A stretch of 44,317 nt of DNA, filler included, from Candidatus Sysuiplasma jiujiangense (lineage in GTDB: Archaea > Thermoplasmatota > Thermoplasmata > Sysuiplasmatales > Sysuiplasmataceae), in the NCBI GenBank assembly GCA_019721075.1. It is 12 parts of 12 records of this genome, joined end to end, with 100 filler letters (N's around TTAATTAATTAA, not from the genome) between each part and the next. Parts side by side here need not be neighbours in the genome. Positions count along the whole stretch, not along the records: positions 18,677 to 22,744 come from JAHEAD010000048.1; 11 more parts are not named here. One strand, 5' to 3'. Position 1 is the stretch's first letter. Each line of letters opens with the position of its first letter. The notes under the pieces are model-generated. The model was not told the origin of the DNA, did not search any database, and worked only from the letters and a program-made list of their open reading frames with translations. Shown here in pieces: positions 10,246 to 40,866 of the stretch. The translations under genes were made by a program, and so were the position numbers.

Positions 10246-10264
10246 GAATCCCTGGATCCGTAAA

Positions 10265-10663
10265 TTATTTCCATTCTCCCGATCTATTTCCGTTGTTTCC
10301 CGTCTGATTTCCGCTTTGTAATAATTTTGCAGCTATGGGTATGAAGTCCTTGATGTCCATGTTTCCACTCTGGATTTTCGCAAACAGAAGGGGCAAATTT
10401 AAGGGTTTCAGGGCATCTGGAACTTCCTGATTGGCATTTTGTAGCGAATCACTGAACTTATCAACGAGTTTATCCATTGTCGATCCTGACTTCCCTACCT
10501 GTAGGTTAATCCTCTTAAGAATCTCATTTGTAGCTTCTGAAATGATATCGTCCACTGCTCCCCTTGACCATTTCCAGAGTTTCACGATCAGCGTCAAATT
10601 GAAGAAATCTATAGCAATCGCCGCTACAAGTCCTGCCAATGCAATGAGTAAATCTGTTTCCAT
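10265..10663 (-). CDS. Membrane protein with N-terminal TM (132 aa)
   Basis: METDLLIALAGLVAAIAIDFFNLTLIV...; probable leaderless start at 10663, ~25 nt downstream of TTATAA. Confidence 0.65.
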   Translation of the reverse strand: METDLLIALAGLVAAIAIDFFNLTLIVKLWKWSRGAVDDIISEATNEILKRINLQVGKSGSTMDKLVDKFSDSLQNANQEVPDALKPLNLPLLFAKIQSGNMDIKDFIPIAAKLLQSGNQTGNNGNRSGEWK

Positions 10664-10703
10664 GAAATATATATACTTCGTTTCCTTATAATCCTTGATA
10701 TAC
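10664..10703. promoter_or_regulatory. Divergent overlapping archaeal TATA promoters
   Basis: ATATATATA (~10666-10675) and TTATAA (10686-10691) each lie ~25-30 nt upstream of an opposing ATG with no RBS. Confidence 0.55.
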
Positions 10704-11162
10704 ATGGCAAAAAGAAAAACTTCTAAGTCCGCTGCTTCTGCTCCTGCAAAAAGGAGAGTAAGCAGGGCAAGGACTATCTATCGCGGTGCTCGGACTGCAT
10801 CCCGTAAGTCGGGAATGAGATGGGGGGAGGTTGCCCTGGCGGCCCTGGTTGGTTATGAGGGAGACAAGGTCATATCCTCGTCTGGTGTGGGAACGGTTGT
10901 ATATAATCTGATGCAGAAAAACGCCTATACTGCTGAGATCACAAATGAACTTCAGAACTCAGATAAGTATACGAGCCTGGGAGAGGTCGGCGGTGCGGCA
11001 GCGAACAAGATTGCCGGACTTGCTGCGATCCTGAAGGGTGCGTATGACGTTGTCAAGCATAAGAAGCTGAGCGAATCTGACAAGAACATCCTGATCCCTT
11101 ATGGAATAGGAACTGTGTTTGATGGCCCGTCTGGTAAGAGTGAGTCCGGGGGGTGGAAATAA
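10704..11162 (+). CDS. Arg/Lys-rich N-terminus plus hydrophobic segments; putative genome-binding/internal-membrane virion protein
   Basis: MAKRKTSKSAASAPAKRRVSRARTIYRGARTASRKSG followed by Gly/Ala-rich hydrophobic helices. Confidence 0.65.
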   Translation: MAKRKTSKSAASAPAKRRVSRARTIYRGARTASRKSGMRWGEVALAALVGYEGDKVISSSGVGTVVYNLMQKNAYTAEITNELQNSDKYTSLGEVGGAAANKIAGLAAILKGAYDVVKHKKLSESDKNILIPYGIGTVFDGPSGKSESGGWK

Positions 11163-11566
11163 TGCCTGGCATGCTCCCTATGTCCAGTATCAATGATGCT
11201 GGATCGGCTACCGCTGGAACTGTTTACGGTGGTGCTTTCACTGGCCCGGACACCGTCCAGGAATCCGGCCTTACTTTCATCGATGTGACTCAGAAGGTTA
11301 CCCTGGAAGATGCAGTTGCGTTTCTTCAGGGATCGGCTTCTGCGCCTGCGCAGAATCACGCTTACCTGATCAGTAAAGGTAATGTTCAGAATGTGGTTGC
11401 TGTGCTCTACTCGAATCAGCTTAATCCTGCAAACACTCAGAGGATGATCCCGAAGGGGGTATCGTTCCAGGCCGGTGACCGGCTCTTTATCCGGGGTGTT
11501 CAGTTGACAGAGGCAACTACCGCTGCTGCAGAGGCAACTACCTTAGTGGTCAAGTGGGCTCCGTAA
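11162..11566 (+). CDS. Putative major capsid protein, small single jelly-roll (134 aa)
   Basis: GGGGGTGG RBS and TAATG coupling; alternating beta-strand pattern; LNPANTQRMIPKGVSFQAGDRLFIRGVQ; no TM; position in the structural operon. The fold is inferred. Confidence 0.5.
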   Translation: MPGMLPMSSINDAGSATAGTVYGGAFTGPDTVQESGLTFIDVTQKVTLEDAVAFLQGSASAPAQNHAYLISKGNVQNVVAVLYSNQLNPANTQRMIPKGVSFQAGDRLFIRGVQLTEATTAAAEATTLVVKWAP

Positions 11567-11567
11567 T

Positions 11568-12308
11568 ATGGTTGTCCTCTATCCGGTAAATCAGCCGTTG
11601 CCCTTAGGGGCTCCGGTTCCTCTTATTTCTGGCAGGACATATAGGCTTAATTTCGGAGCAGCGTCCGGTCAAGCATCTACGGTGCGCTTGTATTTCAGGG
11701 ATAAGGCCAAGACCTTCCTTGAGTATACCCTTTCTCCCTATCTGATAAAGCGTGTGTCTGGAACTGCTTATTCCGAGGTTATGCTCGTAAGCGGTAATGT
11801 TGGTATTGAGGAAGACACTGATGATGCTATTAACCCGAATCTTTTCGGTGTCTATGATGCTTCGCTCTTTGGTTTGGCATTGATGGATGGTGCGCACGTC
11901 CCTGATTCCGTGATAAAATCAATTCAGGCCATTGTCCCGAGGCGTGGTTTTGCATCCACTTATAAAGTCCCTGTTCTCTCTCTCTCTGTAGCCGCTGGGG
12001 CATCCGTTGCTCTTACAAACTTCATAAATGGCTTGGTATATGGCACTAAGATATTCTACACAATGGCCATATCCCAGGATACCCTTGGAACATCTCCTCA
12101 CGCTTCATATTTGCAGCTCTTCGACGCTCAAACCGGGTATCTGATCGATGAGGTTGTTGGTGCAGTTAATAGCCCTACTAAAGGAGAGTTTACCATGCCC
12201 TTGATTAATAATGACGGACTCACCACTGACGGCTTATCCTATGCGTATGCAAACGGTGACTCCGTTGCTCACTGGTTTTATCTCTTTGTCCAGGGGGTCG
12301 CTCCATGA
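11568..12308 (+). CDS. Putative spike/penton or receptor-binding protein (246 aa)
   Basis: Two beta-rich halves joined by a linker; follows the putative MCP. Confidence 0.45.
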   Translation: MVVLYPVNQPLPLGAPVPLISGRTYRLNFGAASGQASTVRLYFRDKAKTFLEYTLSPYLIKRVSGTAYSEVMLVSGNVGIEEDTDDAINPNLFGVYDASLFGLALMDGAHVPDSVIKSIQAIVPRRGFASTYKVPVLSLSVAAGASVALTNFINGLVYGTKIFYTMAISQDTLGTSPHASYLQLFDAQTGYLIDEVVGAVNSPTKGEFTMPLINNDGLTTDGLSYAYANGDSVAHWFYLFVQGVAP

Positions 12309-12625
12309 GTGTTGCTGATTTGGATCCTCAGATTCTCGCTGCTAAGGAGATCGTCAAGGGGCTAAAAGAACTAAAGCCGGTGTTGAATGAGATACTGGAT
12401 CAGTTTGGGATATCCAAAGAGGATAACTTCCAGGGGCTCATTCCTCTGACCGTCTTGTTATATCCCAAAGCTAAGGAGCTTGCTGTATTTTTGCATAACA
12501 TGATCATTATCCAGGGTCAGGTTATGAAGTGGTTGGAAAATGCCGGTGCTGACATTCAGTCCGCTATTCAGACCGTGCAGAATCCGGTTGTCCTGGGACC
12601 GATCTTACCAGGAGGAATCATATGA
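12305..12625 (+). CDS. Hypothetical helical protein (106 aa)
   Basis: ATGA coupling, GGGGG RBS, amphipathic helices. Confidence 0.6.
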   Translation: MSVADLDPQILAAKEIVKGLKELKPVLNEILDQFGISKEDNFQGLIPLTVLLYPKAKELAVFLHNMIIIQGQVMKWLENAGADIQSAIQTVQNPVVLGPILPGGII

Positions 12626-12843
12626 AAAAAGAAACTGTGCATATGGTAAGTGCGATGCTATGGGGTGTGTTCGGGCTTGTTATTGGTTCTCTCTCTGTTG
12701 TCTATAATAATTTCAACGCTTTCGTTATGGTCACTCTGGTGTCCGCTATTGCGGGTAACTCGGTGCACCTGGTGTCTATGTCTATGTCCAAGTCTGGCAT
12801 CTCAGTGTCAGGAACTGAAGCAAGCGCTCAAACAAAGACATAA
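12622..12843 (+). CDS. Small two-TM membrane protein (73 aa)
   Basis: GGAGG RBS, ATGA coupling, two hydrophobic spans. Confidence 0.65.
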   Translation: MKKETVHMVSAMLWGVFGLVIGSLSVVYNNFNAFVMVTLVSAIAGNSVHLVSMSMSKSGISVSGTEASAQTKT

Positions 12844-13806
12844 ATGATTCCCGGGGACGTGTGTCCCCAATTTCCTTTCAAAAAATATCTGCCAAAGGAG
12901 CTGGCATTAATGGAACATGTGAAAGAACTACAAGAATTTGACGATTCGATCGTCTTCTCTCTCCCTGGTCAAGGTGAACCTTACGAAGACTGCGGAACAA
13001 TTGGTTTTAAGGGGCATCTAAACGATGATGGAGGCCTCGATTACCAGTCATTCGCTCATTCCTGTAACCGTTTCGCCTGTCCAATCTGCTCCCCCAATTG
13101 GCGCAAACATGAAGCACTGGCCATAACCGATCGATTAGCCCAATACATCAAGCTTACTCATGGTGATATAATTCACTTTGTGATCTCTCCTAAGCCTAAA
13201 TCGATTTCTAAATTATCGGATTATAAAAGTCTTCGGGGTGAAATGTATTCCGTAGCCAAGAAAGCAGGCATCCTGGGCGGTGTTGCCATATTCCATTACT
13301 TTAGGCACCCGTCCTCTTTGAATGATAGGACTGAACTCGAACCTGATCAACCCCACTGGCACATCCTGGGAGATTCATACCATTACAATGGCTTCAGGGC
13401 TGAGCACCTTAACATCAGTGCCGTAAAGCGCCTGAAGGACTGGGTTGTTAAGTATGTCTCGATCCGTAAGAGTTATACCCAGATGTTCAAGACTGTTGAC
13501 TATGCTTTAAACTGGGGATCCCAGGTATCTTGCCCCTACGCTGACCTGACCTGTCCTAAAGTCGAAATCGAGACCTGGTTCGGCATCATGTCCTACTCTG
13601 CATTTTCTTGCCCTAAATTCATCGGCGATGGTATCAAATGCCGTACCTGCGGTAAAATTATCAAGCAAAAGGACTGGTATTGGATCACTTTCCATGACAA
13701 ACCGCCTCCAGATGATCATGGTGTTCTCACCATTTCTGATCCCGATTCTCCGGTGCATTGGCACCTGAACCTTACCTGGCGGTCTGAAGACGAGATAGGA
13801 TCATAA
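12844..13806 (+). CDS. rep: HUH rolling-circle replication initiator, IS91/SNJ1 RepA-like
   Basis: Zn motif CG...SCNRFACPIC; motif I IHFVISP; HUH motif PHWHILG; putative motif III VDYALN; C-terminal CRTCG. Confidence 0.8.
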   Translation: MIPGDVCPQFPFKKYLPKELALMEHVKELQEFDDSIVFSLPGQGEPYEDCGTIGFKGHLNDDGGLDYQSFAHSCNRFACPICSPNWRKHEALAITDRLAQYIKLTHGDIIHFVISPKPKSISKLSDYKSLRGEMYSVAKKAGILGGVAIFHYFRHPSSLNDRTELEPDQPHWHILGDSYHYNGFRAEHLNISAVKRLKDWVVKYVSIRKSYTQMFKTVDYALNWGSQVSCPYADLTCPKVEIETWFGIMSYSAFSCPKFIGDGIKCRTCGKIIKQKDWYWITFHDKPPPDDHGVLTISDPDSPVHWHLNLTWRSEDEIGS

Positions 13807-13979
13807 TCTGGATAGGTCCACTTGGATAAGTTTATATGCAACTTGGATATGTGGACCTATGAGATTTACAATCTCGGACCAAAATGTGGAACGTATCAGG
13901 GCGTTCCTTAGAAAACAGCACCCTGGGAGCAGTACGGAACAGAGAACGTACGTAATCGATAATCTGGGTAGGTCCACTT
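13803..13979 (+). promoter_or_regulatory. TATA promoter bracketed by repeats (operator or origin candidate)
   Basis: TTTATAT at 13831; inverted repeat ATAGGTCCAC 13812-13821 / GTGGACCTAT 13851-13860; direct ACTTGGATA at 13820 and 13841; 20/21-nt copy of 13803-13823 at 13959-13979. Confidence 0.65.
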
Positions 13980-14038
13980 CGCCAGGTTACACGATGGATG
14001 ATGCCCTTGCGGAGCTTCTTACTAAGGCGGGGTTCTGA
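13859..14038 (+). CDS. Ribbon-helix-helix (CopG-like) regulator (59 aa)
   Basis: MRFTISDQNVERIRAFL...TMDDALAELLTKAGF; leaderless ~22 nt after the TATA; TGATG coupling to the next gene. Not in the ORF track. Confidence 0.55.
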   Translation: MRFTISDQNVERIRAFLRKQHPGSSTEQRTYVIDNLGRSTSPGYTMDDALAELLTKAGF

Positions 14039-14171
14039 TGTCTACAGGTCGACACCCATCCTTAGGCTGCTATTTCTGTGATCAACCTCTTCATTATGAT
14101 TCTGAGTTAGGATTATGGGTGTGTGATACTCCAAATTGCAGGGGTTCAGCAAAAAAATTACACGAGGCGGG
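14038..14171 (+). CDS. Zinc-ribbon protein (46 aa); finishes across the circle junction at TGA 9932-9934
   Basis: CYFC...WVCDTPNC; the frame continues ...HEAGF* at the contig start. Confidence 0.65.
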
Positions 14172-15653: not shown

Positions 15654-16580
15654 ATGGCTTCCAACATCAAGCTGACATTCTTTGGCACAGGTGGGTCGTG
15701 GCCCACACCGATCCGTGGACTCCCCGCAGTGGGGATACAGGTTGACGACATTTTAAACCTCTTCGACTGCGGAGAGGGGACCCAAAAGCAGATAATGGCC
15801 AGCAGCACCTCTTTCATGAAGATAGAGAATATCTTCATATCCCATTTTCACGGGGACCATTTCATTGGCCTGATAGGCATGGTTCAGAGCATGTCCTTTA
15901 ACGGGCGCGTTGCCCCACTGAATATTTATGGCCCGCGAGGAGCTGTACGCATGGTGCTTAATGCACTGAATGTGGGTTACTTCAGGCTAAATTTTGACGT
16001 AAAGATAACAGAGCTCGAGGACAGCGGAAGCTACGACTTTGGGGACTTTATAGTCAGGACACAGCCAAATGATCATCCTGTGCCCGCAATATCTTTCAGC
16101 CTGGAGGAGAAGGACATGATCCGCATCGACAGGGAGAAGGCGGATGAATTGGGATTTCCCGTCAGAAGGCTGGAAGAGCTACGGAAAAAAGGTGTTGTTG
16201 AAGTAGGAGGAAAAGTATTCAGGATAGAGGATGTCAGTGCAGGAACAAGGAAGGGGCGCAAGATAGTTTACACTGGGGATACGAGACCAATGAAGTCAAC
16301 CGTAGCATTTGCTAAAGGGGCAGACGTTCTTATTCATGATACAACCACGGATTCGTCACTGGAGCCAAAGGTAAACGAGTTCGGCCACACCTCTTCCAGG
16401 CAGGCTGCTGAAATAGCCCGGGATTCAGGAGTTAAGCGGCTGTACCTGTTTCATTACAGCCCGAGGGTGGATAACGTAAACACTCTCCTTGAAGAGGCTA
16501 GAAGCATATTCCCCCAGTCCTGTGCAAGCAGCGATCTGCTTGAATATGACGTACCGGTGAACAGAGCCTCGCCAGAATAG
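15654..16580 (+). CDS. rnz: Ribonuclease Z
   Basis: FGTGGSWP, DCGEG, SHFHGDH, exosite, YTGDT and HYSPR motifs. Confidence 0.95.
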   Translation: MASNIKLTFFGTGGSWPTPIRGLPAVGIQVDDILNLFDCGEGTQKQIMASSTSFMKIENIFISHFHGDHFIGLIGMVQSMSFNGRVAPLNIYGPRGAVRMVLNALNVGYFRLNFDVKITELEDSGSYDFGDFIVRTQPNDHPVPAISFSLEEKDMIRIDREKADELGFPVRRLEELRKKGVVEVGGKVFRIEDVSAGTRKGRKIVYTGDTRPMKSTVAFAKGADVLIHDTTTDSSLEPKVNEFGHTSSRQAAEIARDSGVKRLYLFHYSPRVDNVNTLLEEARSIFPQSCASSDLLEYDVPVNRASPE

Positions 16581-16593
16581 TTTAGCCAAGACA

Positions 16594-17064
16594 TTATCTT
16601 TTGACAGGTTCAGTGGTGATGCCAGTCTGATCCTGGTAATTTCCCGATCGCTGCTCGTAGGTTTGGGCAGGTTCTGATGACATCCTAATGAATGTGATCT
16701 GGGCTATTCCCTTTCCCGTGGCAACCATAACGGGGGCATCGGTTGCGTTATACAGGGCAAGGGTGAGTTCTCCCCTGAAACCGGAATCCACAAGTCCGAA
16801 ACTCCCAATGATTCCCTTCCTGCAGAAGGAAGACTTGAGCCATATCTGGCCTGCAATTCCGGATGGCATCTCCAGTCGCTCCAGCGTTGAAACCAGAAAG
16901 AAGCTTCTGGACGGGATGTTGCCGTCTGTTCCATTACCACCTGGCAAACTGATCCTGCCAGCAGTAAGATCATATCCATTCGGTGTAAGCTGTTCCTCCC
17001 TGTAGTTGCTAACAATGAGTTTTCCCCTGGTTACAAGGGATCTTATCTCTGCGTCAGAAAGCAT
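16594..17064 (-). CDS. dcd: dCTP deaminase/dUTPase family protein
   Basis: MLSD, PNGYDL, STLE, KSSFCR.G, VDSGFRG.LT, IAQI, Y...SGNYQ.Q motifs. Confidence 0.85.
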   Translation of the reverse strand: MLSDAEIRSLVTRGKLIVSNYREEQLTPNGYDLTAGRISLPGGNGTDGNIPSRSFFLVSTLERLEMPSGIAGQIWLKSSFCRKGIIGSFGLVDSGFRGELTLALYNATDAPVMVATGKGIAQITFIRMSSEPAQTYEQRSGNYQDQTGITTEPVKR

Positions 17065-17103
17065 TCTGAAGTATAGCTGTGGACGAGATAATATGGTTTC
17101 TAT

Positions 17104-18486
17104 TCATCGTGAGATACCAGATGGCCCATTTCCGGCCCGGATTCCGGGCAGAAATCTGTTAAGCAGCACATAGAAAACCATTGCAAGCACGAATGATACA
17201 TAATAGCTGAGGTCCACTCCACCAAGCACCTGCGCAACTGGACCGTACGGGAAGCCGGATGGCGCCATGAAAGGTATCGAGATAACGATTGCCGCACAAT
17301 ATGCAATAATGCCAGAAAAGTTGTACCTCAAATTCTTAGCTTGGCCATATCTTCGGCCGCGATTGACTATGAAGAAGTCTGCCAGGATAATTCCAATCCA
17401 TGGCGTGATCCAGTAATCGAGAAGATAGAGGAATGTTTCATAGGAATAATTGAATCCATTTATCACGGAAAGGATTGAGAATACAACTGCCACGGCAGAC
17501 ATTAAGATTACTACTGTTATTCGCCTGAGGTTAAGCCCGGCAGCTTTTATCGAAAGGGAATTTGAGTAAAGGTTTATGGAGTTTGCGGCAATCCCTCCCA
17601 GAACAATTCCAACAAGGCCAACGTCAAAGAACCTTCCCATAATCGGTGCAAGCGCGCTAGCAGGATTCGCGGTAGAGGCCTTTCCCGACGCAATCGCGAC
17701 GAGCATGCCTGTGATTTCAAGCCACAGCGATGCAGCAAATCCTCCTGCAAATGAATAGGTGAACACTTTTCCGAGGCTTGTTCGAGGAGAGATATATCTT
17801 GAATAGTCCGAAGCATACGGCCCCCAGCTCATTATGTACGAGAAGGAGAGCGCGAGTACGATTCCGAACTGAGTAAACAGAGTCAGCGATGTGTTTGCAG
17901 AGTATGTGACTGACCAGTGCAAATGGTCAAAAGCAAAATATGTAACCACAACAAAAATCACTCCCAGAACGTATGACATTAATCTTTCAAATTTATGTAT
18001 GAATTTGTGGCCGAAATATGCTGATATGCCAACGATAACTGCAACTAAAATTATGGAATATATGAGGAATATCCCGCTTATCAGCAGACTTATTGCAAAT
18101 GCAGCAAGCACTGTATTTATGGTCAGCCATCCTGTTGTGTTCAGCCATTGCAGGACAGACATAATTGCCCCGCCGCTATCGCCGAACGATCTCCTCCCCA
18201 TTACCATCTGTGGCACCCTCGACTTGGGTCCAACCGCGCTCATAAGTCCCAACAGTGAAGCACCAAGGACATTGCCAAGGACAAGTGCGATAAGGGTTGT
18301 GTCCAGGTCAAATCCGAAATATATGGGAAGAAATCCAAGGGCAAAATCGCCAATGGTCAGGTTTGAAGCGAACCAGATATAGAAAAGGGAAGAGGCTTTC
18401 GGGCCACTGGCATTGTCTGGTACTGCCTGTACATCAAGCCTTTCAGGTGTGAAAACCGAGTCTGCACCTAACACTTGTTCGGTCAT
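17104..18486 (-). CDS. Purine-cytosine permease (NCS1/CodB family)
   Basis: About 12 TM; WFASN, VPQM..GR..FG, SW.PYASDYSRY, N..NLYS motifs. Confidence 0.9.
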   Translation of the reverse strand: MTEQVLGADSVFTPERLDVQAVPDNASGPKASSLFYIWFASNLTIGDFALGFLPIYFGFDLDTTLIALVLGNVLGASLLGLMSAVGPKSRVPQMVMGRRSFGDSGGAIMSVLQWLNTTGWLTINTVLAAFAISLLISGIFLIYSIILVAVIVGISAYFGHKFIHKFERLMSYVLGVIFVVVTYFAFDHLHWSVTYSANTSLTLFTQFGIVLALSFSYIMSWGPYASDYSRYISPRTSLGKVFTYSFAGGFAASLWLEITGMLVAIASGKASTANPASALAPIMGRFFDVGLVGIVLGGIAANSINLYSNSLSIKAAGLNLRRITVVILMSAVAVVFSILSVINGFNYSYETFLYLLDYWITPWIGIILADFFIVNRGRRYGQAKNLRYNFSGIIAYCAAIVISIPFMAPSGFPYGPVAQVLGGVDLSYYVSFVLAMVFYVLLNRFLPGIRAGNGPSGISR

Positions 18487-18676
18487 ATGGGATAATAAGG
18501 AAAAGGTATTAAATTGTAACGGGCTTGGAAAGGGACTCGACCATGGTACCTTAATGAGTCTCCGAGTTTTTGTTCANNNNNNNNNNNNNNNNNNNNNNNN
18601 NNNNNNNNNNNNNNNNNNNNTTAATTAATTAANNNNNNNNNNNNNNNNNNNNNNNNNNNNNNNNNNNNNNNNNNNN

Positions 18677-18718
18677 CAAGCCTATTATTATTACCCAAAG
18701 TCTTGTGTTTGTTTTCAT
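18677..18718 (-). CDS. N-terminal fragment of a signal-peptide protein, probable homolog of 24866-26077
   Basis: MKTNTRLWVIIIGL vs MKKLRGIWGIIIAL; both follow a similar leader. Only 14 codons are visible. Confidence 0.5.
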
Positions 18719-18812
18719 GTCTCAGGAATCCAACAGGGAGATCGCCTGTCCGAGCCACTGGAATGTAACATCAGAGAGCCGATTCCTTGAGAGATTATCC
18801 CTCCATTTTTCC

Positions 18813-18912
18813 TAATTCCTGGGAAAGAAGCCATCCAAGTTTCTGGGGCTCGATGGCTCGCTTCCCCAGAAACTGTGAATGGATATATTCAATGGGTTAT
18901 ATATACATTCAT
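18813..18912. repeat. 100-bp structured direct repeat, copy 1
   Basis: 94/100 identical to 22111-22210; hairpins AGTTTCTGGGG/CCCCAGAAACT and TGAATGGATATAT/ATATATACATTCA. Confidence 0.95.
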
Positions 18913-21900
18913 TCATCTAGGACGGCGAACAAGGATGTATACACCGATTGCCACTCCTGCGGCTGACGCTGCAAGAAGGATAACGAAGACATAGGCGGGA
19001 AAGAAATTCATTGGAGGAGTGGGCTGCACAGGGTTGTATGGTGGTGGGGGCGCCACATACGGTGAGACCTCGAATGTTGGATCCAGAGGCATCGTGGCAG
19101 GATTGAAGGTCGCGTTCAGGATTCCGGAGGAACTTGCATTTTCTATGAAGGATTCAATCTCAGATCCATGACTAATTATCTGAACAACATACTGAATGCC
19201 CGGAACTCCACTGAACTGGAGGTCAACAGAGGGCGCCTTCGAACTGTTCACACCGACCTGAATGTATGTTGGCTCAACGGATTCCGAATAGTTATAGCCT
19301 TTCCATGTGAAGTTTGGTTGAGGGCCACCAACGAGACCGTTGGCGTACGAGATCGTGGGAGTATCACTCGCAATGGTGACGTCTGGCGTTAGGTTGTAAT
19401 ACCAAAAGGATGAACCACCATAAGTAGTGAGACTACCAGATGATGAAGTGTTGAAAAAATACTGGTATGAGGATGATTGCTCTGTTATTGTTGTACCTCC
19501 TCCAATCCACATTGAATATGGCGAACCTTTTCCTGACAAGTATAAAACATTGTAATATGATGGTATATTAGTCTCGGATGGAAGTGGGCGGTAATAAAAG
19601 TGGTTGTTGAAAAGCGTGAGATTAGTTGTGTGCTGCTCTGTGTATATCGGGGCTTCTAGATTGTTTAGGTTCATAAACCAGTTATTTGCAACATACATAT
19701 TCTCGTGTGGGTTAAATCCTATAGCGGATCCTATGTCAACCGAGGGAGGAGCCGCAACAAAGGCGTTTGGGCCATAGGACTCATTGTTATAAAATATATT
19801 CCATGTTACATTTGATACATGGGATATCACCGCAAAACCACCCTGATAACCACCCCTGAATGTATATATAGTATTGTGTGTAAAATTGATGTAAAAAGAC
19901 TGAGACTCATAAGTCATGTAAAACCCAGTCGTCCCTCCCAAGCCGCCACCATTGAAGGCATCCTTTGTGTCATTCATGAATGTTAGATTAACGTAGTCCC
20001 CTGACCAGGTATTATTGTCGTAGTTATCATCAAAGATTGGCTGACCTGAACTTCCCCATGTACCCGTAACTGTATTAGGAGAAAATATTCCAGTAAAATA
20101 GTTGTTGTGTATATTTATGTGGTTTCCATTTACCAAGATGAAGCCCTGCTGGAAGCCCCCATCAATATAATTGTTGAAGAAATTTACGTATGAGTTAATA
20201 TAAGTTTGAGGAGGCATGAACCCGTATCCGTTATATGATGTGGGATGAGTATTATTATCCCAATATGCGATTACCGATGGCGAGTCAACGTAATAGAAGA
20301 TATTGTTTGATACGCTGTCATTAGGTTCAAAATACATTGCCTCTAAAGGAGCCAACGGCGGAGCCGAATATGTAAAATTGTTGTACTCCACAACCGTATT
20401 CTGAGTAAATGTAAAGTAAGTAAAACCTATGCTGGAAAAATAAGCAAGCGAATCACCAGTAGGCATCCCATCCTGAACAAGATTATGCTCAAAGGTGGAT
20501 TCCAAAGAATTGGTTGTAGCAAAATTAAAAGTTGTCCCAGATCCAAATATTGATTCGGTGATGTTCATAGTTAATCCGTTAATATTTCCAAATATTGATG
20601 AATTGATGAATCTGTCGTATTTCCATTGGGGACTGAAAACCCTGGCACCTACTGTATAGTTGTAGAAGGTACTATTCGACACGTAATCCGGTATAAGAAA
20701 CGACGTGATATTTTCAAAAACCGACTTTTCCCAATGATTAGTTGCAGACACGCCAGCACTGGAATCAAAATATTTGATAATGCTACCAGATATGTTTCCA
20801 CTTGGGGGTATCATGTCATTAGAATTCGATGTCGTTCCTACTCCATCGTATATCAAATCATGATAAAATGATCCAAAAATAGTGGAATTATAGGCATTGT
20901 CATTAGAGCCCCCGTACCATATTTCCGCAAACGAACTTAACGAAATAAATGTTGAATTGAACAGATAGATGTTCTCGGTGTCATCATTAATGCTGACGTT
21001 ATCATATACAACAGTATCATTAAAAAAAAGTGAATGCCCATTGACATTTATGCCGTTTGAAATGTAAAAATACCCCCCTGTGACACTTGTGTTTACGGAC
21101 AGTGACCAGGCAGATCCTCCGCTGACTGGGGGTGATGAACCGACTATTGTTGCCGTATGTTTCCACTCCGCAGGACTTAGTAACATGCCTGTTATAGACC
21201 AGATATTTCCACTGAAAGCGGATGTAGGAGCAACCGTGAAATTTGCTTCATACATCATGGTGTTAGTCAATGATTGATTGTAGCCAATGACGTCAAAACC
21301 ATAGCTATATGCAGTACTAACGTGAGTAAAAATTGCCGTCCCATTATTTCCAGTGATGGCTGATGTGAGATACGCTCCGCCTGAACTGTCATTTAACAAT
21401 TGCACAGTTATTTGCGTTGTTTGGTGTGTGTGACTATATGAATTTGTACCGTCCACATTGAAATATATAGTTCCAAGCGACGATGAAGGATTATCAACCG
21501 CAGATGACACGTATGATGAAGGAATCAGGTAAACGGTTCTGCTTGATGAACCTGGTGGAATCAACACCTGTTGAGTATAGTTGACATAAGACGAGGGGAC
21601 TGAAGAGACAACAAACATCCAGTACCAACCTGCATAGGTTGATATTGATACCGTTCCACTTGCCGACGTTTTGTATGGATAAAATATTCCAGTCGTGATG
21701 TTCTGCAATAGAACAGTTTGAAATATTGCTGGCGTATTTGATGATTTAGTGCCATTGAGAACCGTTAAGTTTAATGTAGCTGGAATTTTAGGCATGTTTC
21801 CTTTATATCCAATCATGTTAGGATTTGGTTCACCCACTGTTGATGGTGCTCCAACGCTCGATTGAGGAACTGTTAATCCAATGTCACTCTTCGGAACTGT

Positions 21901-22098
21901 TAGCCCCTGTATTCCCTGCGCCCCAACATCCGATGGGACCGTAGGAGTTCCATACTGATAGGGGAATGTGAAAGAAGATGATGCCGACGGCGATGCCTGC
22001 GCTTGATTGCCTCCCGACTGGATTACTGCGAACGCCGTAAATACAAACAATCCTACTATAAACAATGATAATGCTCTTTTCAGTATCCTCATGGTCAT
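18913..22098 (-). CDS. Secreted, C-terminally anchored glycoprotein with a probable parallel beta-helix (adhesin/receptor-binding), 1061 aa
   Basis: Signal peptide; recurring NNxF/NNTW motifs; Pro-rich linker, TM and RRPR tail; visibly AT-rich core. Confidence 0.75.
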   Translation of the reverse strand: MTMRILKRALSLFIVGLFVFTAFAVIQSGGNQAQASPSASSSFTFPYQYGTPTVPSDVGAQGIQGLTVPKSDIGLTVPQSSVGAPSTVGEPNPNMIGYKGNMPKIPATLNLTVLNGTKSSNTPAIFQTVLLQNITTGIFYPYKTSASGTVSISTYAGWYWMFVVSSVPSSYVNYTQQVLIPPGSSSRTVYLIPSSYVSSAVDNPSSSLGTIYFNVDGTNSYSHTHQTTQITVQLLNDSSGGAYLTSAITGNNGTAIFTHVSTAYSYGFDVIGYNQSLTNTMMYEANFTVAPTSAFSGNIWSITGMLLSPAEWKHTATIVGSSPPVSGGSAWSLSVNTSVTGGYFYISNGINVNGHSLFFNDTVVYDNVSINDDTENIYLFNSTFISLSSFAEIWYGGSNDNAYNSTIFGSFYHDLIYDGVGTTSNSNDMIPPSGNISGSIIKYFDSSAGVSATNHWEKSVFENITSFLIPDYVSNSTFYNYTVGARVFSPQWKYDRFINSSIFGNINGLTMNITESIFGSGTTFNFATTNSLESTFEHNLVQDGMPTGDSLAYFSSIGFTYFTFTQNTVVEYNNFTYSAPPLAPLEAMYFEPNDSVSNNIFYYVDSPSVIAYWDNNTHPTSYNGYGFMPPQTYINSYVNFFNNYIDGGFQQGFILVNGNHINIHNNYFTGIFSPNTVTGTWGSSGQPIFDDNYDNNTWSGDYVNLTFMNDTKDAFNGGGLGGTTGFYMTYESQSFYINFTHNTIYTFRGGYQGGFAVISHVSNVTWNIFYNNESYGPNAFVAAPPSVDIGSAIGFNPHENMYVANNWFMNLNNLEAPIYTEQHTTNLTLFNNHFYYRPLPSETNIPSYYNVLYLSGKGSPYSMWIGGGTTITEQSSSYQYFFNTSSSGSLTTYGGSSFWYYNLTPDVTIASDTPTISYANGLVGGPQPNFTWKGYNYSESVEPTYIQVGVNSSKAPSVDLQFSGVPGIQYVVQIISHGSEIESFIENASSSGILNATFNPATMPLDPTFEVSPYVAPPPPYNPVQPTPPMNFFPAYVFVILLAASAAGVAIGVYILVRRPR

Positions 22099-22110
22099 CT
22101 ACCCAGGTTT

Positions 22111-22210
22111 TAATTCCTGGGAAAGAAGCCATCTAAGTTTCTGGGGCTCGATAGCTCACTTCCCCAGAAACTGTGAATGGATATATTCAAGGGGGTACAT
22201 ATACATTCAT
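22111..22210. repeat. 100-bp structured direct repeat, copy 2
   Basis: Six mismatches to copy 1, mostly in loops; overlaps the stop codon of the upstream wHTH gene. Confidence 0.95.
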
Positions 22211-22437
22211 CTGCGGTATATGATGACGTTCCATGATCTGCCGTCAGAGTTTATGTGGGGAGTTGTAATTTCGACCGCTATTGAAAGGCATTCCCTGATG
22301 TGGTACCGGATTACCTTGTAAGGAATATCCAGCTGATAGGCGAGTGCCCTTCCGAAAATTTTCCTTCCTGGTGGAATGGCCTCGAGGATTATCGAATCAA
22401 CCTCATGGGCAAATCTCAATATAGGATCCTGGATCAT
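22207..22437 (-). CDS. Winged-helix DNA-binding protein (76 aa)
   Basis: GGAGGG RBS and ATGA coupling; VDSIILEAI...RALAYQLDIPYKVIRYHI HTH plus wing. Confidence 0.6.
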   Translation of the reverse strand: MIQDPILRFAHEVDSIILEAIPPGRKIFGRALAYQLDIPYKVIRYHIRECLSIAVEITTPHINSDGRSWNVIIYRR

Positions 22438-22709
22438 TGACCCTCCTCTTTCCGAATGCGGTCGATGATCTTCCTGGGGTCGCACCTGAAGACGTCCGTG
22501 TTCCATGAACCATGCCATACTATGTAGAGAGCATCGTTTTTCTTCATTGACAGTAGGTCATCGACAAGAAAGTGGTTATCGGATTGCGAGAAGTATATCG
22601 CTTGTTCTTCTATTTTTCCTTCCTTGTATCTGACTATTATCCCCCAAACTGGCTTATCAAGCGGGATTGAGTCTTCTTCTCCATACCTGATTTTTCCTTT
22701 TGACATCAC
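22434..22709 (-). CDS. Hypothetical viral protein (91 aa)
   Basis: GAGGTGA RBS; coupled to the recombinase stop through the contig overlap. Confidence 0.65.
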   Translation of the reverse strand: MMSKGKIRYGEEDSIPLDKPVWGIIVRYKEGKIEEQAIYFSQSDNHFLVDDLLSMKKNDALYIVWHGSWNTDVFRCDPRKIIDRIRKEEGQ

Positions 22710-22844: not shown

Positions 22845-23132
22845 CAAAGAATAACTGACAAATTGATTCTCAATATCCCGAACTGTATAATCATCAGATA
22901 ATAACCCTTGTTCTTTTGGTTCAACAATATATCTATGATAAATATGATCCAACTCATCTGCTATTGGAGAATATTCATATTCAAGATACTCTTTTTGATG
23001 CCGAATTGGAACCCATTCTCTATTAACATTCCAGAAATTATCAGTACGCTTATCAATTATAATTTCTGGAATGTTGTCTTTTGGTGGCAAATTCTCCAAT
23101 ATCTTTTTTATTTCTCTATCTATATTATCCAT
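22845..23132 (-). CDS. Hypothetical protein (3'-partial), AT-rich
   Basis: GAGGT RBS; open to the contig edge. Confidence 0.55.
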
Positions 23133-23152
23133 ATATATTTACCTCAAATATT

Positions 23153-23634
23153 TTACGCCTCATATCTCCACTTCCACGCTCTTCTTTTTTCCATGATGCC
23201 ATTTTGCTCCTGTTCAATCTTATGTGCAGTCTCATGTAAAAGCACATGCTCAAACTTAGCGTCATTGGACACAAGCTCTGGATCAAAATAGACGGTATTG
23301 CCCCGAATTTTTGCACGTTCCACAGTTCCATTTTTATTGTTTGTTTTAGATTTCATAGGTCTAAATTCCATGCCGGAAACAAATCCAAGATACTCCGGTG
23401 CATTCCTCTCCACATTTTCCATGACAATTCTTCTTGCTTCCTCATCCATTGATTGTCTCTCTTTCCTGTTCAGAGGTATCTCCTGTCCAAAGTTGTAATA
23501 CGATTCTGCTTCCCTGCAATACCCCGATACCCACGTTCCCTTCTTGTAATAGCCACTGACAAAGAGTTTTTCCTGTTCTTCACAGGCATATTTTTCGTAG
23601 GTTTCGTCCGGGGTTTGTCGTTTTTTCCAAACAT
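23153..23634 (-). CDS. HExxH zinc-metallopeptidase-like protein; full length needs a -1 shift near 23621-23626 (ORF track shows only 23153-23449)
   Basis: VLLHETAH motif; its frame stays open upstream (FVSGYYKKGTWVSGYCR); the ATG at 23634 has a GGAGGTGA RBS but is out of frame by one base. Confidence 0.55.
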
Positions 23635-23823
23635 CTATTTCACCTCCTCTCCTGGCAGAGCGTTTTCAAGACATTCCGCAGCCCTGTTAATGGCCTCGTC
23701 CATGTCAACGTCGAGCCTTGCCGCAAGGATCCTTATCCTCTTCCTTGTCGCTGTCTCGACCTTGATGGTTGTCTTGGTCATACTCTGCATACTACTTAGT
23801 GACATATTAACCTTTTCCCCCAT
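23635..23823 (-). CDS. Ribbon-helix-helix regulator (true start may be internal, MTKTTIKV)
   Basis: TTIKVETATRKRIRILAARLDVDMDEAINRA RHH pattern. Confidence 0.7.
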   Translation of the reverse strand: MGEKVNMSLSSMQSMTKTTIKVETATRKRIRILAARLDVDMDEAINRAAECLENALPGEEVK

Positions 23824-23926
23824 GGCTACCTGGATCTCCTGGTGATGTGGCTGGCGAATCTCTCGAAGCTCCCCAGGAACTTCATCCTCTGGCCGTCCTC
23901 CTTCCTGTCCTCCTCGTCCCGGCGGT

Positions 23927-24160
23927 TCATGGGTCCGTCTCCAGGTATACGCCGAGGCCCAGTGCCATCACCGTGGCAAGGATGTATATCCCTGTCCAGA
24001 GCGTTATGGCAGCGTCCACGCTCATGTGCGTCGCATATGCCGTTACGTTCCCCAGGAACACGGCGAAGCCGAGCTGGCCGATCATCAGGGCGCCGAGGAG
24101 GTAGACGAGCATCAGCGAACCCATGAGTATGAGGGTCCATCCGGATCTTGATTCGGCCAT
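23927..24160 (-). CDS. Small two-TM membrane protein (77 aa)
   Basis: GGAGG RBS; two hydrophobic spans. Confidence 0.7.
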   Translation of the reverse strand: MAESRSGWTLILMGSLMLVYLLGALMIGQLGFAVFLGNVTAYATHMSVDAAITLWTGIYILATVMALGLGVYLETDP

Positions 24161-24466
24161 TCACAGCCTCCCTATGGTATTGTTGTACAGTGATTTTGCG
24201 CCCCCCTGGATGCCGTTCCATGCCATGTTCAATATATTCTGGATCAGGGACCAGAAGAACCCGATGAGGCCATGGATGAATGCCGAGGCCGGGGCAAAGA
24301 ATGATGCGAAAAGGCCCGAGAATATGGACTGGATCTGTGCGGGATAGAACACTATGCCCAGAACGATCACAGCCGCAATAATGATCATGAAAAAATATGC
24401 GCCGTCCTCGAATTCCACGAGGGCGGCACTTTTTGGTATGTTTCTTGCAAGGGAGATTCCGTTCAC
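24161..24466 (-). CDS. Membrane protein with TM and amphipathic helix (101 aa)
   Basis: GTGA-coupled start; resembles the upstream gene (SFFAPASAFIHGL vs SFTSPVSAGFNGL). Confidence 0.6.
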   Translation of the reverse strand: MNGISLARNIPKSAALVEFEDGAYFFMIIIAAVIVLGIVFYPAQIQSIFSGLFASFFAPASAFIHGLIGFFWSLIQNILNMAWNGIQGGAKSLYNNTIGRL

Positions 24467-24864
24467 GCCCCTGCGATGGTCATGGCCGCGTATCCGCTGT
24501 CCGTAAAGAGGGACAGCATGGACCGGATCCCGATCGATTGCGAGACGAACGCCTTCACGAGGGCGATCTGCTGCATGATGCGGAGGTAGAATGCCGGCAG
24601 TATGGCCAGGTTCGACACCGCATGGGACGCCCACTGGAAGAAGGCATTTATCAGGGACGCAAGGCCATTGAAGCCGGCACTCACCGGTGAGGTGAAGCTG
24701 CCGACAAGGCCCACGCCGATCTGCGCAACCTGATGGGAATACAGCCAGAAGGCCAGGCCCACCACGGCGATGATGGAGACGCCGACAAGGATCAGGATGT
24801 CATCCAGATCCCAGCCTGCGTACCCCTCGACGTCGGTTGCCTCTGTCTGCAGGTCTTCCGTCAT
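24463..24864 (-). CDS. Membrane protein with TM and amphipathic helix (133 aa)
   Basis: Acidic N-terminus, TM ILILVGVSIIAVVGLAFWL. Confidence 0.65.
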   Translation of the reverse strand: MTEDLQTEATDVEGYAGWDLDDILILVGVSIIAVVGLAFWLYSHQVAQIGVGLVGSFTSPVSAGFNGLASLINAFFQWASHAVSNLAILPAFYLRIMQQIALVKAFVSQSIGIRSMLSLFTDSGYAAMTIAGA

Positions 24865-24865
24865 G

Positions 24866-26077
24866 TCACGCCTTCAGTTTCCTCGCGGACTGGTCCCTGC
24901 GGATCTTCCTGAGCTTGTACCTCTTCGTGTCGATCAGGCCATAGTACGCTATGACTATGAAGAAGACCACAGCCAGCCAGCCGTATATCAGGGCCACGAC
25001 GTTCGGGGATGTCATGAAGTTGAACACTATGGTCCCGAAGGGCCAGAACATGTTCAGGACGAACCCGAGTACCATGCCTATGAGGCCCACGCCCATGGTC
25101 CTGCTGTACCTCTGCCTCTCAGGGATCTCTGTGTACGCGAAGATGAACAGCCCGAAGAAGAACAGAGATGCTATGGCCGATCCCCATCCCCCGAGGGGCG
25201 TGATGGATCCGACGAAGCCCTCAATTACCAGTATGCCCAGTGCGCCTGCAATGCCGACCAGTGCGACTCCCATCTCCCTGCGTGTCTGGAACGCCTTTGC
25301 CCTTCCTTCCTCCCCGCCTTCATATGCCGGGGCGGCCAGATACGTTACGTAGATGGCAAGGAGCAGTATCACGAGGCCTATGGATGCTATGTATGTCACC
25401 AGCGGGAACTTCTGCCCGTTTGTGTACTCAAAGTACTGTGTGAATGTTATGCTCGCGCTCTGGAAGCCTGTGGCGTTCTTGCTCTGGTTCAGGTGGAATG
25501 CGTACTGCGGCGTGCTTGTGAAGCCGGATGCCAGATACGTTATCGGGTTGAGCTGCACCGATGATCCGAAGTACGAGGCCTGTGCATCAAAGAGCGTCTG
25601 GTTCATTGCGTAATCGGTTATGCCCTTGTCTCCAATGGAATTGACGCTTGTCGCGTTGACCGGTTCCCCGAAGTACATGTATGCGCTGGTCAGGTTAGTG
25701 TTTACCCCGGTAATGGTAAAGTCCGAAAAAGTGAAAAGCGCTCCGTTCTGCAGTTCATCATAGACATCCTGCGAGATATTCTTTGTCTGCACGATCACGG
25801 TCGATATCTTCTCCTTGGCAGGCGTCGAGAATGTGATCGCATTGGTGACCTTGTTCACCGTGAAGCTTGCCTGGTACCAGTGCGCAGAATTTCCGCTCTC
25901 GTTCAGGAGCCATACCGCACTTGTCTCGTTTGCTATCCCTACCCCGGCCAGGGTGTTCAGGCCTGCCGAGGACGGCCCTATGCTGGCATCAGCGCTGAAG
26001 ACATACGCTCCCAAAGGAACGCTGATAACCACCAGCAAGGCGATTATTATTCCCCAAATTCCTCTCAGTTTTTTCAT
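24866..26077 (-). CDS. Signal peptide + glycosylated ectodomain + ~5 C-terminal TM (403 aa); probable envelope/structural protein
   Basis: Hydrophobicity pattern, NxS/T sequons, first gene of a membrane-protein operon. Confidence 0.7.
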   Translation of the reverse strand: MKKLRGIWGIIIALLVVISVPLGAYVFSADASIGPSSAGLNTLAGVGIANETSAVWLLNESGNSAHWYQASFTVNKVTNAITFSTPAKEKISTVIVQTKNISQDVYDELQNGALFTFSDFTITGVNTNLTSAYMYFGEPVNATSVNSIGDKGITDYAMNQTLFDAQASYFGSSVQLNPITYLASGFTSTPQYAFHLNQSKNATGFQSASITFTQYFEYTNGQKFPLVTYIASIGLVILLLAIYVTYLAAPAYEGGEEGRAKAFQTRREMGVALVGIAGALGILVIEGFVGSITPLGGWGSAIASLFFFGLFIFAYTEIPERQRYSRTMGVGLIGMVLGFVLNMFWPFGTIVFNFMTSPNVVALIYGWLAVVFFIVIAYYGLIDTKRYKLRKIRRDQSARKLKA

Positions 26078-26265
26078 AGAGTTTTCCGGAAACAAACGGG
26101 AAAAGCATCCGTTTTGCCTGGTAAAGCATCAGGAGCTGATCCCGGAAGCCTCCATTCCTCCCTTCTGTTGGCGCCATGCGGGTACGAGAAAGTCATGGTC
26201 TTGCGGGACTTGATGGCTTTCGCATGCCCGCAAGACTTAACTATTCATGACGCACAACCTTAATA
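26078..26265 (-). promoter_or_regulatory. Structured ~190-nt leader homologous to 18719-18912
   Basis: Stem GTCTTGCGGG 26198-26207 / CCCGCAAGAC 26227-26236 with a shared GATGGCT..CGC loop; shared GGRATCRGCTC(T)CTGATG block. Confidence 0.6.
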
Positions 26266-26481
26266 TTATTCCTGTTCCTGGAGGCAGTACTTCCTCCGGA
26301 TGGTCATGGTGGCGTCCACGGGCAGGTGCTGGAGGTGGTAGGCGACGGATCGGCTCGATATCCTGTGGCCCGACCTTTCGAGGCCCCTGCTGATGCTCCT
26401 GGCGGAGAGGTGGATCGAACCGGCGGTCTGCAGGTACTGCAGGATGATCGCGTCTACGGCATCGGGGCTGCGGGCAGTCAG
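26266..26481 (-). CDS. Winged-helix protein (71 aa) with probable CTG start; homolog of 22207-22437
   Basis: GGTGA RBS and CTGA overlap; VDAIILQYL...SARSISRGL...ISSRSVAYHL. Absent from the ORF track. Confidence 0.6.
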   Translation of the reverse strand: MTARSPDAVDAIILQYLQTAGSIHLSARSISRGLERSGHRISSRSVAYHLQHLPVDATMTIRRKYCLQEQE

Positions 26482-26684
26482 CGGATCACCGCCAGGGTGA
26501 GAATGACCAGGATCGCAAGCACCGTAAGGGATGCCCAGGGATGCTTCCCGATGGGGATCACCATTCTTGAAATGACTGAATCGGATGTGTCCACAACGAA
26601 GGCCAGGATGAAGATTGCAAGGAAGAAAAGGAAGAACAGCCGGATGCGGTCAGGCCAGCCAAGGCGTTCCTCATCATGGGTCAT
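26478..26684 (-). CDS. Small two-TM membrane protein (68 aa)
   Basis: GGGTGA RBS; two hydrophobic spans. Confidence 0.65.
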   Translation of the reverse strand: MTHDEERLGWPDRIRLFFLFFLAIFILAFVVDTSDSVISRMVIPIGKHPWASLTVLAILVILTLAVIR

Positions 26685-26939
26685 GGCTTCACCCTCATCA
26701 TGATTCCAAGGACCGTGAATGCCACTCCAAGCGTCTCGTTGCGTTCAAATATCGCTTTCTTTATTTTCTGCATTTTTTTCATGTTTTCACCTTCCTTTTT
26801 TTATTCTCCGTCTTTTTAGAATTGATTTCAGGGGTTTCGNNNNNNNNNNNNNNNNNNNNNNNNNNNNNNNNNNNNNNNNNNNNTTAATTAATTAANNNNN
26901 NNNNNNNNNNNNNNNNNNNNNNNNNNNNNNNNNNNNNNN

Positions 26940-30498: not shown

Positions 30499-30971
30499 TG
30501 GCCTCTAAATGCAACGTGAAAGTTGCATCTAAAAAAGGTGAAATTCATAAATGTAAAAAAGTCAGGGGGCATTATGATCCAGGCGCAAGTCCACATGAAT
30601 GTTCATGTGGATATATATGGGGTAGACGGGGGAACTGGAAGGAGGAGATGTCCTGATGTGCGACTGGTGCATATCACGAATTCCCTGTTACTGCGATTGC
30701 GAAGACAATGGGAACGGGAAATGTGATCGTTGTGGCCATTGGTTCAGAAATGATGAAGATGATGAGGAGGGATTCTGATGAAATTCAAGATAAGCAAATT
30801 GGATGAGTTCATAATCATAAACCATTATCCTGAGCCTTACTATGAAGGTGAAGAGCCAGAAGGAGATTCAANNNNNNNNNNNNNNNNNNNNNNNNNNNNN
30901 NNNNNNNNNNNNNNNTTAATTAATTAANNNNNNNNNNNNNNNNNNNNNNNNNNNNNNNNNNNNNNNNNNNN

Positions 30972-40212: not shown

Positions 40213-40743
40213 GCGGATGAACTCGGGGCTTGGCTTGGAATAGTACTTGAGAATTGTGGCTGCTGTATCACCTGTATTCTGAATTACTATCTCCATCGGG
40301 ATCCCGAGTTCCCTTGAGAGTGAAATGTAAGTGTGCCGGATTGCATGCCAGCTCTTTCTTTTCCCTAATACCTTTTCAGTCCATGACTGTATCTTCCTTT
40401 CTATCGTCTTATGCGAGAACGGAAAGAGGCGGGGATCCTTGCCTCTTGCCAGCGTGTTGATAAACCTTCGCAGGACACCTAAAACCTCGGTTGGAATGAA
40501 AACATCCCTATATCGGTCCTTCTTCTCATCCCAAATCCGGATCTTCTGTTCCTGTTCGTTTATCGATATCTCCTCAAGAGCTGCGATCTCTGATATCCGC
40601 ATCCCTGTATAGAGGCCCAGGAGGATGAGGGCATAGTCGGAGAAGTCCGTAATCGTTCTTAACAGCAGGTTCGCTTCCTGGGAAGTGAGGGGATCGTTCG
40701 GGGTCCGTTTCCTCTCTTTTATGTCTGTCTTATTTTGTTTCAT
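40174..40743 (-). CDS. int: Small tyrosine recombinase/integrase (catalytic domain only, ~189 aa)
   Basis: TGMRISE (R), DEKKD (K), WHAIRH (HxxR), NTGDT, ILKYY (Y). The start could extend to 40848. Confidence 0.9.
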   Translation of the reverse strand: MKQNKTDIKERKRTPNDPLTSQEANLLLRTITDFSDYALILLGLYTGMRISEIAALEEISINEQEQKIRIWDEKKDRYRDVFIPTEVLGVLRRFINTLARGKDPRLFPFSHKTIERKIQSWTEKVLGKRKSWHAIRHTYISLSRELGIPMEIVIQNTGDTAATILKYYSKPSPEFIRKTIQEKQMFEVK

Positions 40744-40866
40744 TTTAGGACTTTTTCTTGATTCGAGTTTTTTTCTCCTGATTGGGGTATATATATTCAA
40801 GTGGATCGGACCTCCCGATTCTGTCCTAAACGTGCAAGAATAGGACATGTCTTTTTCTCCATGGAA

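Follow-up and report, generated by a model that had tools for sequence, protein, structure and literature searches.

Two direct repeats enclose a gene for a 1061-aa surface protein at positions 18,813 to 22,210 of a 44,317-nt stretch of DNA from the archaeon Candidatus Sysuiplasma jiujiangense (the window), which consists of 12 small contigs of assembly GCA_019721075.1 (G000) joined by runs of N. The explanation that we favor, with a probability of about 0.64, is that a promoter and a two-state translational leader have been duplicated, that the cargo genes between the two copies are shuffled by homologous recombination, and that a small tyrosine recombinase encoded nearby resolves at sites of its own. 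Feature coordinates are given in Table 1. Contigs of G000 carry C numbers (C43 holds the 1061-aa gene, and C44 is the contig at 22845-26839); genomes, loci and public sequencing runs (contigs with depth) carry G, L and X numbers, respectively. Run X2 contains almost the entire window and is excluded as independent evidence.

The preliminary description of this locus reported direct repeats of about 100 bp that closely bound the surface-protein gene, and sequence comparison confirms them: the copies are 100 nt long, 94% identical and spaced 3,298 bp apart. Outside the four contigs of the element family, the best match to the repeat in G000 is 18 nt, so the repeat is not a chance resemblance. 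Each copy starts at the preceding stop codon, as described; in the sense direction, the upstream copy overlaps the stop of a small winged helix-turn-helix (wHTH)-like open reading frame (ORF), and the downstream copy abuts the stop of the surface-protein gene. Of the two hairpins assigned to each repeat, the first proves to be a palindrome that surrounds a TATA-like box, and a two-state structure better describes the second. Read in the sense direction, a repeat consists of this palindrome and, downstream of it, a 62-nt segment made up of the arms A-B-A'-B'-A''. From its sequence, the repeat is probably an archaeal virus promoter plus the 62-nt leader. It is present twice in each of C33 and C29 and once in C14, where the upstream copy is reduced to a 29-nt promoter-like part. 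No contig carries more than two copies, a TATA-like box accompanies each, and a TATA-like match lies 25-35 nt upstream in 21/21 copies. Two linked single-nucleotide polymorphisms (SNPs) occur in upstream and downstream repeats in all four position-by-haplotype combinations among six copies, as would be expected if copies exchange sequence. The downstream copy, before the major membrane gene, is taken to be in the ancestral position, and the single-copy arrangement of contig 22845-26839, L048 and L057 is read as ancestral. A plain promoter duplication, which the preliminary description offered as the simpler alternative, is the closer of its two proposals, but the unit also contains a conserved two-state RNA and is not plain.

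Covariation supports two mutually exclusive predicted folds, a 5' hairpin (A:A') and a G-U-rich rod (A-B with B'-A''). In two structure-blind alignments, 10/12 and 10/11 hairpin pairs show two-sided changes, a result reached in 0/500 shuffles each, although kinship among copies inflates these tests. The hairpin is paired in 95% of cells in an alignment of 11 copies, and slid-register controls are 23-63% paired compared with 93-95% for the true register. For the rod, the pairing of each lineage's own 5' and 3' arms is the best of 40,320 permutations (8 lineages), and over 16 lineages 0/20,000 random permutations match own-arm pairing; only 10/16 rows have their own arm as the single best partner. 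In 18/21 copies, the rod is favored on the sense strand, with a margin above 4 kcal/mol. In folding of the growing transcript, the A:A' hairpin appears at 45 nt and the rod by 62-70 nt in 9/9 non-inverted copies tried. A full pseudoknot (A:A' plus B:B') was ruled out by reasoning on loop length.

The leader occurs at ~25 places in Thermoplasmata virus-like elements, almost always singly and right before the first membrane or structural gene. It is fixed directly behind a TATA-like box and, L041 apart, always lies in the sense direction. Held-out copies in G410 and G414 were recovered with a covariance model; the held-out test returned 10 new matches in 8 of the 101 genomes searched, with one further match in G009. 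Nine of the ten are intergenic, in sense, after a TATA-like box and before a start codon, mostly that of a membrane-protein gene, and all are single on their contigs. The tenth, in G532, sits within a long ORF and was discarded as a false positive; two weak matches in G411 were also discarded. With model R1, pattern-preselected junk scored up to 20-29 bits, and the matches in C17 and L041 therefore rest on position, not score. Under stricter filters, the leader had no match in 150 further genomes sampled from the class. Its exact hairpin pattern has no match in IMG/VR and 28 matches in genomes, all bacterial or in unrelated records, and a scan with the core motif gave 10 IMG/VR loci, none of which scored as a leader element; the IMG/VR scans did not retrieve the virus-like group that carries the leader. 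No Rfam covariance model matches the leader, and likenesses to ribozymes, cyclic di-GMP RNAs and CRISPR repeats gained no support from Rfam. Searches of open-access article text found no structured regulatory RNA of archaeal viruses and no leader RNA of this kind; the motif tables in supplements to RNA surveys could contain it without an Rfam entry.

How might such a leader work? Transcription would start at arm A. Hairpin A:A' would fold first, freeing B'-A'' to mask the ribosome-binding site (OFF), and refolding into the rod would uncover it (ON). As the trigger, we would first suspect a virus protein or a delay in folding, and a small ligand second. Consistent with this scheme, a Shine-Dalgarno (SD)-like motif is predicted to be at least 0.2 more paired in the hairpin state than in the rod in 14/20 copies, and the anti-SD hairpin beats shuffled downstream sequence (P<=0.05) in 12/21 copies. 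The modeled leader probably switches the synthesis of virion proteins on and off at translation. Translational riboswitches and attenuators are 5' leaders with alternative pairings (1:2 / 1:3 / 3:4), SD sequestration and a short conserved core. The leader resembles them in its exclusive helices, predicted SD sequestration and short conserved core, but it has no Rfam match and is found before envelope genes in virus-like elements of archaea.

It is also conceivable that the leader acts on transcription or RNA stability, as an attenuator or a protective 5' structure, with the rest of the model unchanged. SD gating is not predicted in 6/20 copies, including the downstream copy of the window, C14, C44 and L048, and both folds are kept even there; moreover, the 3' arm contains a pyrimidine-rich tract. 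We nevertheless regard this as unlikely, given that folding predicts an anti-SD or anti-AUG hairpin in C17, G414, G009, the G410 group and the upstream copy of the window, whose downstream sequences are unrelated. Four of the six non-gated copies have a second predicted stem between SD and AUG. An SD-like motif lies 75-90 nt before the AUG with a long stem predicted between them in 8/8 aligned leaders, with weak individual z-scores; these long-stem leaders are the second leader element of Table 1, window 26075-26172, L041, L043, L046, L048 and L055.

Several further points weigh, with the non-gated copies, against a duplicated promoter and RNA leader. The TATA pattern is loose and was used without a shuffle control. 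The SNP combinations could reflect assembly chimerism across the 100-bp repeat. Many supporting copies are near kin, with G410, G555 and G583 sharing one sequence. The strand preference of the rod is reversed (antisense) in C44 and tied in two copies, and G-rich strands pick up G-U pairs trivially. All RNA states are predictions. Finally, A:A' is almost purely Watson-Crick, which is also compatible with a DNA inverted repeat, and in the L041 leader (L041:1357-1424) the inner 35 nt are inverted between perfect 9-bp inverted repeats. This inversion could be a one-off template switch, an artefact or a flip allele.

The last two points would suit an element that works as DNA, whether as an operator array, a single-strand origin, a packaging signal or a small invertible segment beside the promoter, as would the conserved GCGNAAGC core, which we take to resemble stable DNA mini-hairpins. 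Such an element is improbable in our judgment. Arm sequences vary by lineage while pairing is retained; the rod relies on G-U pairs, and under DNA parameters it is not the lowest-energy structure in the C43 family; and, as noted above, the position behind the TATA-like box is fixed and the orientation near-uniform.

If the repeats carry a promoter and leader, what lies between them? The interval was described as exchangeable, and it is: alternative cargo occupies the space between the same repeats in C33 and C29, with repeat-bounded intervals of 4,544 and 4,524 bp, respectively, compared with 3,298 bp in C43. The C33 and C29 cargo encodes TatA, TatC, a 597/591-aa twin-arginine protein, a ~190-aa ORF and a 371-aa anchored protein, and the cargo in C14 is a ~980-aa relative of the surface-protein gene. 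Every cargo type ends in a homologous C-terminal domain and membrane anchor, and DNA similarity across cargos extends ~180 nt into the coding 3' end; therefore, the downstream exchange point need not be the repeat. We propose that one lineage acquired a second copy of the promoter and leader ahead of accessory envelope cargo, which would therefore be expressed like the structural genes. Cargo is probably traded between co-occurring strains by homologous recombination, with the wHTH ORF and repeat as the flank on one side and the shared C-terminal anchor, repeat and leader as the flank on the other. The twin-arginine translocation (Tat) module spans L001:128-2908 (G000:C33) and C29 458-3220; TatA matches PF02416, and TatC matches PF00902 and is 35% identical to a copy on the large contig C4. 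The twin-arginine motif of the 597/591-aa protein was spotted by eye, and the protein is probably a beta-helix protein (beta-helix lead 0.85). The versions in C33 and C29 diverge over the C-terminal ~90 aa, a segment that matches contig C24. A TatA/TatC pair carried by an element together with a twin-arginine substrate is not evident in the papers that a search of open-access text for virus-borne Tat returned.

The interior of the surface-protein gene is swapped between conserved coding ends, probably by the same route. The core of the gene is AT-rich, as described (39.5% GC compared with 47-51% at the ends). Depth in runs X3, X5 and X8 is much higher at the two ends of the gene than in the interior (825-2,009x compared with 4-8x in X3), and in five joints from runs X2 and X3 the sequence from 19323-19362 to 21899-21905 is replaced by other sequence. 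Judged from these depths and joints, the commonest adhesin variation, seen in three runs, is a swapped passenger interior, not the repeat-bounded unit. The predicted layout of the protein is an N-terminal helix, a beta-sandwich region, a central long beta-helix-like passenger, another beta-sandwich and a C-terminal membrane helix. Fold matches are weak (pilin, tailspike and pectate-lyase-like, with TMq up to about 0.2), and the label "adhesin" is a reasonable inference for the modeled protein. Two homologues lie on a 70-kb contig without the repeat (L070; G000:C5, about 1268-4264 and 16039-19161). Large surface proteins are also encoded at window 153-4553, 5071-9132, 30924-34310 and 37848-40013, three of them with PKD/Ig repeats. 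Two of these four genes are 74-76% identical in DNA, similar genes occur in C17, C19, C27 and C31, and all four probably encode additional variable envelope proteins of related elements.

The suggestion that some loci have a single copy and no cargo is borne out (C44, L048 and L057). The order of the contig at 22845-26839 is also as given: a wHTH-like ORF, a related element and the MKKLRG gene, with nothing in between. This contig is not an "empty" version of the same locus, however. The MKKLRG gene is 39% identical in protein and 54% identical in DNA (669/1232) to the MKTNTR gene of C43, marking another element and not an empty allele. No junction of the wHTH end, one repeat and the leader is found in G000, and none of the seven joints listed for four runs bypasses the 3,298-bp unit. 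Terminal repeats occur in G000 only on C14 and C41, and no cargo circle was found; contigs collapse repeats and so could conceal an empty-site joint.

Could the cargo-repeat combinations simply be assembly chimeras of strains? In favor of this are the length of the repeat, which is close to that of the 99-bp contig overlaps, the start of C33 within the repeat, and the great diversity of the population. However, the two cargo types share a terminal anchor and are joined to one and the same leader, both upstream junctions are found in contigs of public runs, and the motif recurs in unrelated assemblies; we regard chimerism of this sort as extremely improbable. The closest known systems include the PeSL cassettes of the T4-like phages RB49 and phi1, in which ~100-bp intergenic units of promoter plus stem-loop flank variable genes; they act as homologous-recombination linkers, with no dedicated recombinase identified (PMC2839356). 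The present locus shares with them a repeated (here predicted) promoter and stem-loop that flank variable genes and start near the upstream stop codon. PeSLs, as presented there, are numerous, have sigma70-like promoters and use the stem-loop as a terminator (PMC2839356), whereas the present repeat has no more than two copies and an archaeal promoter, its structure is a two-state leader downstream of that promoter, and no mini-circle is seen. By analogy, the locus would resemble PeSL cassettes in its working, not an integron.

The recombinase deserves separate consideration. The ORF at 40174-40743 was correctly identified as a tyrosine recombinase, but its start is probably near 40800, as homologues are mostly 205-208 aa long. 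The family (~205 aa) is conserved, with 158 matches; R, K, HxxR and Y are invariant in 24 sequences, and the second His position is an invariant Asp. The best solved relatives are archaeal XerA proteins, to which the profile aligns without an IntI insertion near patch III, and the recombinase scores below the integron-integrase cut-off (28 compared with 265 bits). Two candidate sites (Table 1), together spanning 40726-40847, overlap the start of the recombinase gene. Both are present in 7/9 retrieved recombinase loci (11 tried), including a Nitrososphaeraceae locus, at distances of 83-84 or 94-95 bp, two spacings that differ by about one helical turn. Site I was also seen by eye in a Micrarchaeota locus. 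The geometry of site I is like that of dif, which has 11-nt arms and a 6-nt spacer (PMC8371274). The recombinase differs from XerA/dif systems and plasmid resolvases in having no N-terminal core-binding domain, an Asp for the second His and a second phased site inside its own gene. It has no plasmid match. From these patterns, the recombinase is most likely a multimer resolvase that acts at its own site pair and not at the repeat.

An integron-like system, in which the adjacent recombinase would cut out and insert cassettes bounded by the repeat, with the folded repeat serving as its site, was the main proposal of the preliminary description, and it does not hold up well. As in integrons, including archaeal ones, a tyrosine recombinase gene lies near a repeat-bounded gene and the repeat folds as a long imperfect hairpin. 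Two different cargos begin at the same repeat end, and the recombinase lies one or two genes upstream in C43, C29, L048 and L057 and precedes the promoter-only copy in C14, an arrangement that counts against our preferred explanation. However, the recombinase is off the element's contig (absent or elsewhere) in 10/10 further element-bearing genomes, some of whose contigs are short, and the recombinase loci L055, L056 and L058-L064 lack the element. A near-perfect 31-bp palindrome with nested hairpins stands in the leader's place in the recombinase-wHTH locus L055 (about 8810-8850). Repeats score at most 8.3 on the recombinase-site pattern compared with 25-32 for the training sites, scores that are inflated by their derivation from those same sites. 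One half-site-like 10-mer at the edge of the downstream copy scores 8.0, but this is at the 95th percentile of background, and the 10-mer is not kept in the other five copies scored. The attC core consensus is RYYYAAC ... GTTRRRY, and no match to it is present on either strand of either repeat copy. Nor is there the insertion that defines integron integrases (10.1101/2022.02.06.479319), or an array: there are never more than two copies, and each repeat has its own predicted promoter. Homology also runs ~180 nt into the coding 3' end of the cargo. With the conserved sites of the recombinase lying elsewhere, we consider an integron-like system very unlikely, and the swaps most likely arise by ordinary recombination rather than through the neighboring recombinase.

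Table 1. Features of the repeat-bounded locus, the recombinase locus and the related element (positions along the window)
Feature	Position	Strand	Basis or remark
Start of gene for 387-aa major membrane protein (MKTNTR gene)	18677..18718	-	Complete in C33, C29 and C14
Second leader element: GGAGG, ~75 nt predicted long stem, AUG	18716..18812	-	Weak lead, z -0.7 to -1.6
Downstream repeat copy, ahead of major membrane gene; TATA-like box 18905-18898	18813..18912	-	Sequence comparison
Arms of downstream copy	A 18874-18864; A' 18848-18838; 3' arm B'-A'' 18837-18813	-	
1061-aa surface protein	18913..22098	-	103 homologues; predicted structure, pLDDT 73
Allele-specific interior of surface gene, exchanged between conserved coding ends	19357..21804	-	Run depth, joints, C14 allele
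Upstream repeat copy: palindrome, TATA-like box about 22203-22196, two-state leader 22172-22111	22111..22210	-	Comparison and covariation
wHTH-like small ORF	22207..22518	-	No Pfam match itself; positional counterparts give weak HTH matches
91-aa ORF	22434..22709	-	Mostly within 315-bp segment absent from commoner run X2 allele; C29
MKKLRG gene, homologue of 387-aa protein, 39% aa identical	24866..26077	-	Protein comparison
Single two-state leader copy in distantly related element	26170..26237	-	Covariation alignment
Candidate accessory site (site II), 10-bp inverted arms, variable 7-bp spacer	40726..40752	.	Within N-terminal coding region
Small tyrosine recombinase, catalytic domain only, about 208 aa	40174..40800	-	R, K, HxxR, Y kept; second His replaced by Asp
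Candidate crossover site (site I), 10-bp inverted arms, 6-bp spacer	40822..40847	.	Sequence pattern

The sequences suggest that the locus belongs to a putative family of circular or integrating Thermoplasmata virus-like elements, with named relatives of the element in Thermoplasmata assemblies. C14, a 23,046-bp circle, encodes a protein of the fusellovirus VP2 family (PF25632, E 3.7e-17) and a 406-aa XerA-like integrase, together with the small recombinase, many membrane proteins and a weak match to an AAA-type ATPase. VP2 is found outside Fuselloviridae as well (PMC4158269). Fuselloviruses, too, have circular genomes of comparable length that encode VP2, an integrase, an AAA-type ATPase and numerous membrane proteins, but their host class differs, and no VP1/VP3 capsid homologue was identified here by Pfam, PHROG or fold matches among the proteins tried. 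In fuselloviruses, VP3 is presumed to have been excised by homologous recombination between direct repeats, and SSV8 is reported to have a duplicated promoter region (PMC6080066); these viruses thus offer a precedent both for excision through repeats and for a duplicated promoter. The 387-aa major membrane protein has no clear match in a fold search (best Z 7.9, to beta-sandwiches). Searches with the major protein and the recombinase found nothing in nine family genomes and nothing in 400 phylum genomes, and searches of open-access text found no description of the virus group.

Some neighboring features are less directly connected. The 99-bp overlap linking the surface-gene contig to the recombinase contig is real. 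The gene order read across it (integrase, 91-aa ORF, wHTH) needs a correction: in run X2, a joint at 22389-22705 skips 315 bp with most of the 91-aa ORF at a depth of 9,762, compared with 3,692 for the ORF-bearing form. C14 has a 486-bp internal duplication (17044-17528 and 18878-19362; 74%) with two ORFs that share a C-terminal segment. Window 9837-14171 is a complete 4,244-bp circle with a 91-nt terminal repeat, encoding a 320-aa protein like rolling-circle Rep_1 clusters (0.96-0.97), a 155-aa ORF with a basic N-terminus and small membrane ORFs; it is either a small plasmid or a single-stranded DNA virus.

What are the implications of a duplicated promoter and two-state leader? First, structured regulatory RNAs are, to our knowledge, little known in archaea. 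The leader may represent a new class of archaeal-virus RNA switch with a GCGNAAGC core, responsive to a virus protein or ligand and gating envelope synthesis, which one lineage has turned into a linker for swapping envelope modules. We hold this extended reading tentatively, as possible but short of an even chance. If it is true, one of the swapped modules is a Tat export system that is self-contained and brings a substrate of its own. Second, the leader is only 62 nt long, covaries well and makes sharp predictions, so it would be cheap to test, and it provides a marker for the virus-like group. Third, the small recombinase comes with a precise candidate site. Fourth, putative envelope proteins of these acid-mine archaeal elements vary at two tiers, by the exchange of whole modules and by the exchange of passenger domains.

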